Assembly: GCF_001457595.1 (NCBI RefSeq)
Contig: NZ_LN831039.1
Location: 5,670,001 to 5,702,000 of the forward strand
From: Mycolicibacterium smegmatis
GTDB taxonomy: Bacteria > Actinomycetota > Actinomycetes > Mycobacteriales > Mycobacteriaceae
DNA: 32,000 nt
Direction of reading: 5' to 3'
This document shows, piece by piece, positions 6,001 through 12,000 of this stretch. Each line of letters begins with the position of its first letter. Position 1 is the stretch's first letter. The position numbers are program-made.

Positions 6001-9000
6001 CCGCGAACCAGGCCAGGGTGACGATCACCGCGAAGCGCCAATCCCGCCACCGCAGGCTCGCCCGTCGCCCCCAGGTCAGATAGATGGCCGACCAAACGAC
6101 CAGCACGTGCAGCACGAAGAACGTGATGAACAGATGGTGTGGGAAGTCCGGTGCGCCTTCCTCGGCCGTGCCGACGTCAGGTGTGAGCAACGCCTGCGAG
6201 CTGAGCACCAGGCCCCAGTAGTACGTGAGCACGAAAGCCCAATGTCGCTGCGACCAGAGCGCGTACGCCGCCACGAGTTCCGCGACGTCACACAGTTGCA
6301 GCGGTACCGACGTGTCGAGGTGGGGTCGCGCCAGCTTGTAGGCCAGCGCCACTGCAAATGTGGCGATCAGTAGCACCGCGAGCACTCGGCTCAGCAGCTT
6401 GGCCTGCTGTTCTGTCTGCCTGCGTCCGGCCCACACGAGCAGGGCCGCGCCCACCACAAAGATGGCCAGCACCACCAGGTGCGACGGCCCGTACGCCGAG
6501 AACTCCTGCTCCGCAGCACTCAATTCGATGACCTCCGTCTCTCGATTCTTAACAACGAGAGACGCTCATCGATTCGTCCGCGCAGGGTGTGTCGCTCAGC
6601 CGACGTTGACGCGCAGAGTCTCGTGTTCGTCGAGGATCCGCCGCAAGGCGGCGTCCATGGGGTGCGCCGCGGACAGGTCGCGGCTGCAGCGACGGTCAAC
6701 GCCGATGACGTCGCCGGCGTGCACGTCGCAACACTCGACCTGGTCGACGAACGCGTCGAACAGCGCGGCCGGGGTCGCCAGGTAGTAGTGCGGGTGATCC
6801 GGGTGCGCGAACCGGGCGCCGTACATCAGCCCGCACTGGGTGATCATGAAGAACTCGGACGCGATGTCGACCGTCCCCAGGTCGACCTTGCTCCAGGCGT
6901 ACGCGGCATGGCGCGCTTCGGCCACCCGATCCTGGACCTCATCGGTGGACGTCATCAGGCGGTGCACGAGAACCCCACCGGTCTGCGGGTACTCGTCGAC
7001 GGCCGGTCTGAAGTAGCGCTGGAACATCGAGCCGAAGTAGTCGTAGACCTGATCGTTCATCGCGGCTCCCCACGTTGCGTTGATCCGTGGCCCAATTGTG
7101 CGCCCCGAACGGTCATTGCGGGGGTGGCTTGTTCCGTTCGGAAAGGTACTTTTCGTTGCGGGCGCGTTCGGCGCGGATCTGGCGGGCCCGTTGCTCTGCG
7201 CGGGTCAGTTTGCGCTGCGGCATCATCACCCCGCGCGCCGGTGAGGTTGCCCGCGGCGGTGGTGGCGGCAGTGTGGTGGTGGTGGTGTCCCACTGCGGAA
7301 ACACCCAGCGACTGCCCGGCACCGTGGTGTAGGTGCGACCACTGGGCATCGTCCACACCACCTGCCCATCGGGCAGCTGCGTATCGACGAACCCCGCCCA
7401 GAACGTCTTGATCAAATGATGGTAGAGATTTGACGAAAGACATTCATGGCTCATTTGCAGGCAGGCTGGTGCTGATCGTGGGACCAGAAGCGGTCAGGTA
7501 TCTTTATCTGAGGTGGTTCGAAGTCTTAGCTTCCGCAGGTTCACGACCATGACCAACCGCAGAGCGATGGAGACCCGGGTTCGAGTCCCGGCTCCGGTAC
7601 CGATGCCGGAAGTAGCTCAATAGGAAGAGCCCTCGTTTATTCTTACTATTGCCAACTGGCTATTGTCCATAGCCCTAGAGTCCTGGCGGCCGACTCTAGA
7701 TCGCTTTCAGGAATGTTTACCGGCCCGTATCGGCTCCTCGCGTACCCGATAAGCGCTCGACGCCACCCGGATGAATTGCGATTATTCTTCGTGGATTCTT
7801 GGAAGTCTTGCACACACACTTCGGCCCACACTCGAACAGGTATCGTTGCCGCCAATGCGGCGCTGATATCCCGCCCGAGCTGTTTGATCACGGCAAAGGC
7901 TGAAAAGATGTGCGACGCCACAAGGACTAATTCAGCCTGCTGTACTACGTCTGAGGGCGGTTGACCATTCAATCGCTGCCATTCTTGCACCGCGGCAGGG
8001 CTCATGTTGCTGATCTGGTTCGTTAACTCCTGCTGTACCCTCCTGCCCGCATGGACGACGGCGTTTCTCATGCATCGAAGTAGCTGGAAACATTCCGTCG
8101 ATTCCGGTCGGGCGGTGTAACCGAGCGCGTTGAACAAGACCCTGTGCATACTTTTGGCAGTGATCGGTCTCGATGAACTTACGTTGACTCCCGCGCTCCG
8201 CGCGAATTCAATCGCAGATGTCACAAAGTCCTCGTGAACTGCCAACGCATATGTTATCTCCATTGACGCCAGGTGATCATCCGCAGCACTAAGGTATTTC
8301 GTTGCTGGACCAACCCGGAGGTTGAACCGATCGATGTGCTCGACCGTTGGGAAAATGTCTGCAAGCTGTTGATTTTGTGTACCGTTATTCACGATTGCGT
8401 GGTTGGCAATCCTGGAACCTGCGAGTAGTGACATTACGGCATTATTTACATCAATGCTGATCTCTTGATACTGCCGGTACTCGGGGTACTTCACCTCGTT
8501 CATAGCTGCCTTCCCGGAGGAATCGGTGACCGCATGATTAAGTCGACGATTGGCCGTCGGCGGAACGAACGACCCGTTATGTTCGAGCCTCCTCCACCAG
8601 CGCACGAAGTTGTTCGGGCGTGAGCCACGGGGAGCGTCGGTGAATCATGCGGTGGCAGTTCGCGCAGATGAGGATTAGGTCGTCTAGGCGCGTCTTCACC
8701 TCCCCCGACGCGTGCAGCGGCACTACGTGGTGGCACTCGATGTATCCGTCGCCGTGTGATCCGTACGCAGCTTTGAAGTCGAATCCACACGTCGAACACG
8801 CGAGGGACTTGTGCTTTTGTAGGTGCTTCTTGATCTTCTTGGCACGCAGTCCACGATCACGCTCTCGGGCGAAGTGCCGCCGTTCAAGAAGTCGACCCTC
8901 TGGCGCTTCATCTTCGTCTAACTCATCGACGTCGTTCACCACTTCAGTTGCGTCGACCAGATCACCCGTGCTCATGCCGTCGCGGATCAACTGCGCGGCC

Positions 9001-12000
9001 TGACGCATCTCGCTCTCGCGTTGAAGGAAGTCGTTGAGCACTTCTAGGTCAGTCGCACCGGCGTTCGTCGGCGTGCCCGTGTACTCGGGGTGATGCGTGG
9101 CGATGTCCCAAGTTTTGCGCCCGACACCATTCGGATTCCTGAACTTCGGTCCGCGCATCTCCATCGGGTGAATTGGCAACTGTTGAAGCAGGTCCGATAG
9201 CGCCTGGACCCGCGCATCGTTCGCGCCCATTCCCTTCCACCCGTTCTCGAGAACGAGGTCACAGGCCAAGATCAATTCGTCTCGCGTCCAAGTGGGTTCA
9301 CGGCTAGGCGGCACGACGAACCCCAGTCGGCGCAAGTACTTGACCGCATCGCTCTCGCCGCCGTAGAACTCGTCCGACGTGAGAGGCGGGAGACCAGGGT
9401 GGTGCCCGTGGGCGGCCGCGAGGATGGCCTTTGAGTCGTACTCCTTGCCGCCGCAGTGCAGCAGGTATCCAGTCGCCTTCCCCATACCGTACTTAGCTAG
9501 AAACGCGTCCCGACCAAGCTTGTCGAACTCCGCGATCGCCTTCAGTACGTCCTCGCGCGTGACATCCTTCTTGGCCATGCCAGGCGAGTCTACGGACGAG
9601 GCCGCCGACGCCGACGCCGATCAAGACCCATGTTGGGTGAGAACATCGTTCGCTACGAGCGAAACGGCGACCGGCGTGTCTGCATGCCGGGTTGTCGGTG
9701 CCCGCCGATAGCGTCGGCGACATGGAAGCAGAAAAGAACCCCGACTACCTGCGGCAATTGGCCGAGTTCGTTCGGGACTTCCGCGACGCGTTCGAGTCGC
9801 TGCTGGAATTGCACACGCCGACGTGGGAGGGCACGGGCCGTGGACTGTTCCCTGCTGTGTCGCCCCGCGAGGGCATTGACGAGGACGAGTTGCAGGCGCG
9901 ACGGACACGCGTTGCCGAGGCCGCCGGACGGGCTCGCCGTGCACCCGGTCTCACCGGCGTGCAATATCACGTCCAAGGGGTCCAGGGCGCGGTCGATCCG
10001 ATCGCGGCGTGGGCGACAGTGCTACAGCCGAAGCCGGTGCTTGAGCCCTCGAACATCATCGACGCGGCCAACCAAATGATCGGCCAACTCGACGAATTGA
10101 TCGTGCGGGCCGAAGCCGAGGCACCACCGAAGGTCGGTGTAGCGGGGATGCATCCGGCGGTGTGGGGACAGGCTTCGCGGCTCTGGCGCGACGGCCATTA
10201 CCGCCAGGCAGTGTCGGCGGCGGCCGATGGCGTGATCGCACTGGTGAAGGCCCGGACCGGCCGCAACGACATCCCCGACACGTCGCAGTGGCAGCAGGCG
10301 TTCTCGAACAACCCACCGAAACCGGGTGAGCCGCGTCTCCGGTGGCCAGGTAATCCGGCGGACCAGTCGGTGAAGTCGATGAACGACGGTCTCCGCCAGT
10401 TCGCGCCGGGTGCGCAAATGACGATCCGCAACCCGGCGGCACACGGCACGGCCGAGATGTCCGAACAAGAAGCGGCGGAACGGTTGGCGGTACTCAGCCT
10501 GTTGGCACGGTGGGTCGACCAATGCGACCTCATCGAAGCGCCCGACCCGTCCGCGGGCAGCGGCCTGCCATGACGGTCGCCGCGTTCGTTCTCGGCTTGC
10601 TCGGGTTTGGCGTCGCCGTCTCGTCGTTGACGTGGCAGGTCTACACGTTCCTGATGCAGGGCGCGCGACCGAAACTGACGCCGGTCGTCGGTTACCACTA
10701 CGGCGGCGGATTGCTGACGAACGACGCGACCCGCGACATACGCGAGTCACTCCGCTCCGCCACCGCGCAATTTCCACCCGGAGGCCATTACGTCGTAGGC
10801 GTCAACGTCGTCAACGCCGGGCGCGCACCGTTCCACGTCGCCAAGTGGGCGATACGTGTTGACCCGGCAGGCACGTCCTTCGTATCGGTCGATGACCCGC
10901 AGGGGTGCCCGTCCGCCCCGCACGACATCGCGCCCGGTGCCGATGCGACATTCTTCACCGGTCTCGTGAATCTCCGCGCCCTGTCCGCAGCCAGCGGAGC
11001 GATCGACCGACGTCGCCAACGACTAGTCGTCACGGTGGAAAGCGGCGGCCGCACGTACACGTCCAAGCCGATCGCGCCGGTTAACCTCACGATCGGCGCG
11101 TCGTAGGTCGTTGCCGAGACGGGCGACCCACCGATGCCGACCCGTTTCCGGCGTCGATCGTGCGCGAATCCGGCCGCCGGGCATCCGGTGAACCGCCCAA
11201 ATTGGTTGCTGTGCAACCACACACGGCCCGAAGTGCCCGGCGGGCACCCGTCGATCGGCCCGCCTGCCGCAGGGCGGCCCGATTTTTCGCCCGCGCAATA
11301 AAAAAATGGTGACTACCGCGGTGGGAGTCACGGAGGCTGGGGGCTCGATAAACTAGGGGTGGTGGATGTGGACTGGGCAACCGTTGTGACGTCCGGAGCT
11401 GCTTCGGCGGTTATCGGTGGCGTCGTTTCATGGTTTACAGCTCGTCACGTAGCGGGTCGGCAAGAGCGCGGGCGTTCTGCAGTGGAGGCTCGACGACTCA
11501 TTCGGGACCTTGTTCGTCCCGAACTCACGAAGGTCCGTCAGTATCAGGCGAGAGCGATGGCATCGGTAGGCCGGGACGATGACGACAATTCGTTACATGT
11601 CGATGACTTGGGATTTTGCGCGCGTGTCCTGAATGCCGCTGAAGACCTGCCGTGGTGGCGGCGTTCGCTTGTGGTGCGACGGCTCCGAGTCCTGTTCGGT
11701 AAGAACACAGTCGACCTTTGCTTCATCCACGGAGAGCAAGCAGAGGACCCACAGATGGCTATGACGTTGGTTCTTCAACGTCAGGCGAGGGGGCTATTTC
11801 GTCCCGATGAGGGACTGCCGCAACCCGATCGAGGTGCGTTCGATCGGGCTCTCCGCTGCCCGCCGAACTCGAAGCCCGTTGCCGATCTGGTGCGGTCGTT
11901 GACCTCGCTCAGTCGGGCCTTCTGACACAGATCAGGGTCATCCCGTGTCTGTAGGCAGAGGCCATCAGTAGAACCACGTGGTGGATTGTGCAACGTCCGG

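Follow-up and report, generated by a model that had tools for sequence, protein, structure and literature searches.

What does a small helical protein with a putative ribonuclease motif do next to a restriction-type nuclease in Mycolicibacterium smegmatis? The question is raised by a 32,000-nt stretch of the genome (NZ_LN831039.1, positions 5,670,001–5,702,000; "the window", whose own positions are used as coordinates below), in which a gene for a 333-aa protein with an HNH finger is followed on the same strand by one for a 285-aa protein carrying the motif RNAVVH (Rx4H). A first interpretation, made from the bare sequence (the sequence-only reading), had tentatively joined the two into a composite defence module, with a modification-dependent DNase backed by an RNase of the HEPN type. 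The conserved partner of the 285-aa gene proved to be a different one: a 134-nt gene for a structured, tRNA-like RNA on the opposite strand. This gene, at 7510–7643, lies just outside the interval of the earlier interpretation, which starts at 7646, and had been overlooked there. Our best guess, set out below, is that the RNA holds the 285-aa protein inactive until infection.

A conserved cassette of a protein gene and a tRNA-like RNA gene

The RNA gene is convergent with the 285-aa gene, and its 3′ end lies 2 nt from the stop codon (Table 1). Across 39 loci, the distance from the stop codon to the RNA 3′ end has a median of 2 nt and falls between −10 and +4 in 27, and the RNA overlaps the stop codon in 10. 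From 5′ to 3′, helix P1 encloses the hairpins P2 and P3, the latter with an invariant GG...CC stem; an ACAGAA-type linker follows, and helix P4 then encloses a T-arm, a capped acceptor-like hairpin and a D-arm before a U-rich tail. P4 closes the tRNA-like body where the anticodon arm would be. The nucleotides of the tRNA elbow are invariant, both the T-loop UUCGAGU and the GG pair of the D-loop, which would contact the T-loop. The acceptor-like hairpin is deleted in a Streptomyces subgroup (loci L016–L026). The order of the arms is permuted, with the T-arm before the D-arm, and there is neither an anticodon loop nor a free acceptor end; ARAGORN and the Rfam tRNA model call no tRNA at this site. 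The predicted product is a structured non-coding RNA with a circularly permuted tRNA-like body. In 36 of 41 loci, a hexamer of the form TANNNT, often extended to TGnTANNNT, is found 8–22 nt ahead of the point where the modelled RNA begins. It presumably acts as a promoter, and its conservation supports independent transcription of the plus strand.

The proposed structure is borne out by covariation. Several copies fold independently into the same architecture, and the minimum-free-energy structure of the window copy was therefore mapped onto an alignment of 25 RNA copies and a covariance model, R1, was built. Of the 38 pairs in the covariance-model alignment, 29 have changed on both sides in a compensatory way, and pairing holds in 85% of cells. 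The covariation score of 0.373, against 0.157 for shuffled alignments, was reached by none of 500 shuffles, and control partners slid by 1–3 columns pair in 29–56% of cells. An untuned MAFFT alignment already yields 80% paired cells and 22 covarying pairs. RNAalifold, run on the plain MAFFT alignment, found three invariant hairpins only, so that the variable helices needed the hand-mapped structure and the covariance-model alignment. The counts of G–U and A–C cells (116 versus 66) discriminate mildly between the strands. The thermodynamic stability of the window RNA is unremarkable (z = −0.35) and was for that reason not used as evidence. At gathering thresholds, Rfam 15 returned no family at the RNA site, in the window or at 12 family loci, and the RNA family is thus not in Rfam 15. 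The best permissive match is to the tRNA-like module of YrlA (RF02553, model positions 25–83), at 25.5 bits where the gathering score is 69.

To follow the RNA and the protein across genomes, loci were collected from 31 species genomes, 7 further contigs of named homologues, 11 metagenome contigs and 3 contigs of remote members (about 55 loci in the whole census). BLAST and motif searches located the same RNA element just downstream of, and convergent with, the homologous gene in most loci, although the proteins are only 30–60% identical to that of the window. R1 finds a single copy in the window (123 bits, E value (E) 1e-29) and recovers the RNA in 34 of 38 homologue loci, in one copy each and always beside the gene. 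The loci without it comprise a contig end (L019), two partial protein matches (L030 and L031) and one genuine exception (L037). The linkage was also examined in reverse, by scanning metagenome contigs with a pattern drawn from the RNA only (P3 hairpin plus T-loop). This gave 70 matches, 11 of which pass R1 at 87 bits or more, and all 11 have a family protein adjacent and convergent (hmmsearch E 1e-69 to 1e-140). Another 58 fail R1; most of these are chance matches inside one conserved protein-coding sequence. We conclude that the two genes, for the 285-aa protein and the 134-nt RNA, make up a conserved and portable cassette that travels between actinobacterial defence islands and mobile elements. 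A separate scan of viral contigs with a T-arm/D-arm pattern returned 18 matches, all of them junctions of tandem phage tRNA genes, and these were discarded.

Outlying loci show further forms of the RNA. In L134, where the protein is about 25% identical, the permuted RNA (1031–1154, minus strand; 55 bits) is convergent and overlaps the stop codon. Its P3 reads CCGGUUCGAUUCCGG, a second T-arm-like hairpin, which hints that P3 of the 5′ domain may derive from, or act as, a T-loop. L135 comes from an organism with 40% guanine plus cytosine (GC) and has no permuted RNA; a tRNA-like gene of normal topology (478–577, plus strand) lies there on the same strand as the family gene (594–1448) and 17 nt upstream of it. 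A 31-nt insertion takes the place of its anticodon loop; with the Rfam tRNA model the element reaches 50 bits, and it is not called by ARAGORN. This may be a second route to a loop-less tRNA mimic or, in a single case, a coincidence. In Amycolatopsis thailandensis (L027) the RNA (4288–4388, plus strand) is on the strand of the gene and starts right after its stop codon, the only such case seen; it scores 43 bits and has a degenerate 5′ domain and no acceptor hairpin.

The partner protein belongs to a family of its own, with 33 homologue clusters in a collection of 5.8 billion proteins and 389 representatives at 50% identity in an exhaustive search. Nearly all members listed are stand-alone proteins of ~280–290 aa, and the members tested (32 of them against Pfam) have no match in Pfam, NCBIfam or PHROGs; sequence and profile searches against PDB chains gave no significant match either. 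The RNAVVH motif spans aa 146–151. In an alignment of 46 diverse members, down to 21% identity, Arg146, His151 and Trp175 are the sole invariant residues, and Arg143 and Asn147 are nearly invariant. The AlphaFold2 models are all-alpha, with a predicted local distance difference test (pLDDT) score of 93.8 at full length and 97.0 for residues 70–222. Both the Rx4H motif and the helical character described in the sequence-only reading are thereby confirmed, whereas its assignment of the protein to HEPN stands in part: the invariant RNxxxH dyad and the all-alpha fold agree with it, and the Pfam, hhalign and Foldseek comparisons weighed below give no significant match. Searches of the 46 members against PADLOC gave 14 weak matches (E 0.002–0.03), 11 of them to HEPN-bearing models (reverse transcriptase (RT)-associated HEPN and several CARF–HEPN models). 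The highest-probability Foldseek matches are likewise HEPN toxins, 5yep_C (probability 0.33; template modelling (TM) score 0.40/0.45) and 6m6w_B, neither of them significant. We regard the protein as a likely HEPN-like RNase.

The HNH gene and other neighbours of the cassette

The 333-aa protein was in most respects described correctly from the start. Pfam HNH (PF01844) covers aa 261–315 (E 5e-8; 33.4 bits against a cut-off of 21.4), and the CxxC/HH/N/CxxC-H finger is present as CSTC from aa 261, HH at 283 and CANC-H at 305–309, invariant in 18 homologues. The FRNPNGV motif begins at aa 146, within a middle region that is conserved across these homologues, Phe146, Arg147 and Val152 being invariant. 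The likeness of the N-terminal ~95 aa to the head of ScoMcrA, which the sequence-only reading had pointed out, is firmly upheld: aa 2–91 align to residues 3–93 of ScoMcrA (5zmm_A; E 2.5e-13), and the precomputed Pfam call for the N-terminal region is PF26345 (ScoMcrA_N). In the crystal structure of ScoMcrA this head domain is flexibly attached, and it has no known function (PMC6224610). The ββα-Me finger is similar to that of EcoKMcrA (6GHC; E 7e-7). Of the two Type IV HNH restriction enzymes, ScoMcrA (5ZMM) thus shares the head domain with the protein and EcoKMcrA the finger; ScoMcrA, however, is 561 aa long, and its sensor domains SBD and SRA are undetectable here by sequence, phmmer against 5zmm aligning the head and, very weakly, the HNH only. 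They are replaced by a conserved middle region of ~100 aa that holds FRNPNGV, and a sequence-level search with aa 92–245 matched no PDB chain at E up to 10. Since neither sensor is detectable, "modification-dependent" was a guess from family resemblance, and this part of the claim is not sustained. On its domain content, the protein is best described as a predicted ScoMcrA-head plus HNH nuclease of a Type IV-like kind.

The proposal that this nuclease and the HEPN-like protein form one defence unit, a modification-dependent DNase with an RNase back-up, draws on real features of the locus. The two minus-strand genes are co-oriented and 73 nt apart, as had been noted, and the same arrangement occurs in all contigs of this strain or species; a consensus promoter or terminator was looked for in the spacer and none was found. 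At other loci, restriction-type systems of other kinds are often found upstream of the cassette. The co-occurrence analysis by which the sequence-only reading had proposed to be judged nevertheless goes against it. By tblastn, an HNH homologue is found in none of the 52 other-lineage loci carrying the 285-aa family and only in contigs whose 285-aa protein is identical to that of the window. Close HNH homologues, at 89, 83 and 66% identity, have other neighbours, neither the 285-aa gene nor the RNA. The families differ ~65-fold in size (at least 2153 clusters for ScoMcrA_N plus HNH at E < 1e-10, against 33), and the differences between the HNH gene and the 285-aa gene in GC (0.61 versus 0.53) and in GC at third codon positions (0.73 versus 0.59) suggest separate origins. 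The two families are not co-conserved, and on these results we rejected the composite module: as a conserved arrangement it is largely refuted, a single working unit of the two is very improbable, and the HNH gene is a local chance neighbour of the cassette. In the contig of the closest HNH homologue (89% identity; L131, 5023–6039), a different 338-aa gene without a Pfam family lies 20 nt downstream, and variable passengers on the downstream side may be common among HNH genes of this family.

Elsewhere the gene upstream of the cassette varies from locus to locus and is divergent in about a third; a co-oriented one often belongs to a complete defence system. Such neighbours, upstream or adjacent, include a Type IIG restriction-modification (R-M) system (L003; E 2e-286), PD-Lambda-5 A and B in several Streptomyces (L016–L026; E 2e-187 and 1e-105), the methylase HmaB (L099; E 0), RmrT/RmrA (L001), an Argonaute-associated restriction endonuclease/DUF4365-TPR protein (L004), the candidate systems PDC-M43B and PDC-M60C (L010, L034), HEPN_Apea on an integrative element (L037) and AIPR with an Eco57I-type methylase (L136). 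AbiTii, GmrSD and TniQ/TniB are also among the 124 neighbours scanned. With relatives of the 285-aa gene so often adjoining R-M or other defence genes, the general idea of a HEPN-type back-up next to restriction, also put forward in the first interpretation, remains plausible. The gene order in L016–L026 is fixed as PD-Lambda-5_A, PD-Lambda-5_B (a Dam-type methylase), a 280-aa family member and then the convergent, acceptor-less RNA; in some of these loci the methylase gene is missing or decayed, with a gap of ~885 nt.

Within the window, the cassette sits in a degraded mobile region. A Ymh/TIGR02391 gene lies there in divergent orientation, together with a DUF222 gene and the fragment of a phage head protease that an IS3-family element has cut (Table 1). 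The 285-aa gene (GC 0.53) and the HNH gene (0.61) stand against 0.65 for the whole window, and the earlier spot counts of GC (0.45 at 7621–7680 and 8341–8400, 0.70 at 1–60) proved exact on recount.

Table 1. Features of the cassette and its surroundings, in window positions
Feature	Position	Strand	Remarks
−10-like hexamer TATCTT (TANNNT)	7499..7504	+	11 nt upstream of the modelled RNA start
Structured non-coding RNA gene, 134 nt	7510..7643	+	covariance model R1
5′ three-helix domain P1–P3	about 7512–7558	+	followed by an ACAGA-type linker and the tRNA-like domain closed by P4
T-arm mimic CCGGG-UUCGAGU-CCCGG	7575..7591	+	GGTTCGAGTCC core invariant or nearly so; five pairs kept in 99% of cells
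Capped acceptor-like hairpin	7593..7612	+	between T-arm and D-arm; sequence variable; 5/5 modelled pairs compensatory; 93% of cells paired
D-arm mimic GCUC-AAUAGGAA-GAGC	7615..7630	+	columns T121–G132 invariant; helix 100% paired
285-aa all-alpha protein gene	7646..8503	−	uncharacterized family, probably HEPN-like; counted from ATG
Rx4H codons R146-N-A-V-V-H151	8051..8068	−	
Spacer, HNH gene to 285-aa gene	8504..8576	−	73 nt, read directly from the sequence
333-aa predicted ScoMcrA-head plus HNH nuclease gene	8577..9578	−	cassette neighbour in this lineage, not a conserved part
HNH finger (aa 261–315)	8634..8798	−	
ScoMcrA-type head (aa 1–91)	9306..9578	−	
154-aa open reading frame	6596..7060	−	no family
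113-aa open reading frame	7113..7454	−	no family
293-aa Ymh/TIGR02391 protein gene	9692..10573	+	divergent from the HNH gene
156-aa open reading frame	11965..12435	−	phage head maturation protease fragment
IS3-family insertion sequence	12492..13855		24-nt inverted repeats, two-part transposase reading frames
DUF222 protein gene	13853..15082	−	
CTCTGG repeats	13946..14059		perfect hexanucleotide repeats in the DUF222 gene
tRNA-Arg(CCT) gene	27838..27911		
Repeat of the last 38 nt of tRNA-Arg	30828..30865		exact, ~3 kb downstream

Several of these surroundings merit a description of their own. The 293-aa protein has a C-terminal Hypoth_Ymh/TIGR02391 domain (E 1e-24) and its own RNPAAH motif, and would be a second, unrelated HEPN-type gene of the island; its gene is found only in contigs of this strain and at none of the other cassette loci. 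The 154- and 113-aa reading frames, between the RNA gene and a TMEM164-family gene, are likewise restricted to this strain's contigs, and the former resembles glucose-6-phosphate dehydrogenase weakly and in part (E 1e-4). The similarity of the 156-aa reading frame to phage head maturation proteases (PHROG E 3e-20) is confined to their C-terminal part, and the IS3-family element adjoins the end of the frame, which looks like a prophage remnant truncated by that element. The CTCTGG run of the DUF222 gene likely encodes a Pro-Glu dipeptide repeat, a candidate for length variation. The tRNA-Arg gene and the exact repeat of its 3′ part flank a stretch of lower GC (0.57–0.59), whose reading frames have no Pfam family except for one DUF1232 protein, and the stretch has the appearance of a small element inserted at the tRNA. 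The idea that the cassette RNA is itself an attachment-site repeat of this tRNA-Arg was rejected: the sequences differ, and the tRNA has its own 38-nt repeat.

A possible RNA-held RNase and the rival explanations

How might such a cassette work? Our best guess, to which we assign a probability of about 0.4, is that it encodes an RNase toxin that is held by a tRNA-mimic RNA, is freed on infection and then cuts tRNA, aborting the infection. The 285-aa protein would be a HEPN-type endoribonuclease with Arg146 and His151 in the active site, and would recognize the shape of tRNA. The RNA would offer the tRNA elbow without a cleavable anticodon loop; as it leaves the enzyme nothing to cut, we propose that it would bind the enzyme and hold it inactive; such a decoy or antitoxin RNA would resemble those of type III toxin–antitoxin systems. 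Infection could remove or outcompete the RNA, halt its supply or cripple the neighbouring DNA-level defence, any of which would free the nuclease; cleavage of cellular or phage tRNA would then abort the infection. Anticodon nucleases of the PrrC type are known to sit within R-M loci. There are precedents for silencing by RNA as well: the HEPN toxin AbiF is neutralized through direct binding by the non-coding RNA RCd22 (PMC12373285), and YrlA's tRNA-like domain has been suggested to inhibit an anticodon nuclease competitively (PMC7790460).

A number of observations weigh against this proposal. HEPN homology of the 285-aa protein does not reach statistical significance: Pfam gives no match in 32 members, and Foldseek (full model against PDB and BFVD, domain model against PDB) stays at E of at least 0.4 and TM scores of at most 0.45. 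In hhalign, the RNxxxH motifs of the family and of TIGR02391/Ymh are aligned, at a probability of only 0.9%, and neither the neighbouring Ymh protein nor the Ymh alignment gives a significant match. The RNA is missing beside a protein of 54% identity in L037, as confirmed with filters off, and no such RNA was seen in the remote member of L136/L137. The cassette does not have the known type III layout, in which a repeated RNA lies upstream on the same strand, and its convergent, abutting genes could mean antisense control instead. Finally, about a third of the loci have no co-oriented upstream gene, so coupling to a neighbouring defence system is not obligatory.

If antisense control were the answer, the RNA would be mainly a cis-antisense regulator and shared terminator, its 3′ overlap controlling mRNA stability or read-through as in the type I pair bsrG/SR4, and the tRNA-like fold would merely stabilize or process it. 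The position of the RNA 3′ end (median 2 nt from the stop codon, overlapping it in 10 of 39 loci), the U-rich UUCUGU tract that comes after helix P4 on the opposite strand, and the fact that no separate terminator is predicted for the mRNA of the 285-aa gene would all suit such a role. It would need no invariant T- and D-loops, elbow GG or covarying 5′ domain, however, and yet these are kept across proteins of 30–60% identity; the RNA of L027 lies on the gene's own strand, and the tRNA-like element of L135 lies upstream on the same strand. We consider this account quite unlikely. The tRNA-like fold takes centre stage in another, in which the cassette forms a Ro60/Y-RNA-like ribonucleoprotein for RNA surveillance or repair: the protein would bind the 5′ domain of the RNA, and the tRNA-like domain would recruit RNase P, the CCA-adding enzyme, PNPase or an RtcB-type ligase to damaged RNAs. 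The succession of T-arm, capped stem and D-arm is that of YrlA (PMC4201824), the separate conserved 5′ domain could be a protein-binding module, and there is no direct evidence of toxicity. Among the neighbours listed, however, no TROVE/Ro60, RtcB or repair gene was seen, and only 3 of 41 RNAs contain GNCGAAN0-1G, the motif bound by Ro60. The setting is one of mobile elements and defence islands, not of stress operons, and the low GC and patchy distribution of the gene are typical of conflict genes; we regard a surveillance role as unlikely.

A further account, that the tRNA-like stretch is a dead relic, a functionless pseudo-tRNA or attachment-site scar, would sit well with an island that holds an IS3-family element and a phage protease fragment, and tRNA genes are common integration sites of islands. 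The permuted order with the T-arm before the D-arm is not what such a scar would yield, though, and the non-tRNA 5′ domain and the promoter-like box are conserved. The compensatory changes in 29 of 38 pairs, and a placement relative to the protein gene that has been kept in over 45 loci from different genera, leave this explanation practically no probability; covariation and linkage to the protein gene together have already refuted it.

In its most novel form, which we offer tentatively and at somewhat less than even odds, the proposal would make the cassette a member of an unrecognized class of two-component conflict system. A HEPN-like RNase would be controlled by a genomically encoded tRNA mimic without an anticodon loop, serving as a decoy antitoxin or as a bait by which phage factors that act on tRNA are sensed. 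The loop would have been lost by circular permutation in Actinobacteria and by exchange for a long hairpin in the remote low-GC relative, and the whole would form a portable second line behind unrelated DNA-level defences.

Known systems and what the cassette would add

Mycobacteria are known to have YrlA, the closest counterpart of the RNA in Rfam. Bacterial YrlA is a Y RNA-like tRNA mimic (Chen et al. 2014, PMC4201824) that is bound by Ro60/Rsr. It shares with the RNA described here the permuted module of outer stem, T-arm, capped acceptor-like stem-loop and D-arm, with the elbow-forming loop nucleotides, and in both cases the RNA gene adjoins that of the presumed protein partner. In contrast to YrlA itself, the RNA remains at 25.5 bits against the threshold of 69, which none of 12 family loci reaches, and the Ro60-binding helix and motif are not found, apart from the 3 of 41 motif matches given above. 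Rsr/TROVE is absent from the neighbour lists and from the listed most frequent Pfam families of the 124 neighbours; the partner is an unrelated 285-aa all-alpha protein, and the three-helix 5′ domain, the convergent layout and the defence-island context are distinct.

On the side of the toxins, AbiF (Abi_2/AbiD/F HEPN) with RCd22 and the type III systems such as ToxIN are, like the cassette, compact pairs of a protein and a dedicated RNA on mobile elements. In both, a (putative) RNase toxin is neutralized by direct binding of a structured RNA, with a role in abortive infection (PMC12373285, PMC5086642). The 285-aa protein, however, has no similarity to Abi_2 or ToxN, and PADLOC gives no type III match. 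The RNA is a single-copy tRNA mimic without repeats or abiF motifs, and it is convergent, whereas the RNAs of AbiF and of the type III systems (ToxIN, CptIN, TenpIN) lie upstream on the same strand; the toxin and antitoxin roles are putative here. A looser likeness is to the anticodon nucleases PrrC and RloC, putative HEPN-type tRNA nucleases that stand beside systems of DNA restriction or methylation and may form a second line; PrrC is linked to the EcoprrI R-M locus. The 285-aa protein differs from them in having no ABC-ATPase domain, and its silencing would be by RNA rather than by a complex with R-M proteins. The partners of the cassette also vary (Type IIG, PD-Lambda-5, Hma, RmrTA, Type IV HNH) or are absent. 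The best neighbours by Foldseek probability, the HEPN-MNT toxins (SO_3166/HepT; 5YEP, 6M6W), likewise carry an RNxxxH-type motif in a small helical bundle. At TM scores of 0.40–0.45 and E > 2, the match is not significant; the 285-aa protein is twice as long, and the MNT nucleotidyltransferase antitoxin gene of those systems is not present here.

A literature search of open-access papers and preprints gave no earlier account that ties a tRNA-like RNA to phage defence, to an antitoxin or to a HEPN-like protein, and inhibition of an anticodon nuclease by a tRNA-like RNA has so far been speculation only (PMC7790460). For catalogues of defence systems, the cassette shows a particular hazard, as an analysis of co-occurrence among proteins only would count the 285-aa gene either as an orphan or, falsely, as belonging to the adjoining system. 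If the proposed reading is true, it would add a new structured RNA family, for which a seed alignment and a covariance model are in hand, and, with ~390 clusters at 50% identity, a new protein family whose proposed active site at Arg146/His151 is open to test. It would also provide a simple two-gene cassette for direct tests of tRNA mimicry in Mycolicibacterium or Streptomyces. Y-RNA-type tRNA mimicry and RNA-controlled RNase toxins are both known kinds, and there is a real chance that their combination constitutes a new class of system. The cassette would then link Y-RNA-type tRNA mimics, whose function in bacteria is unknown, with the toxins that RNA regulates in phage defence, and so join two fields hitherto without contact.

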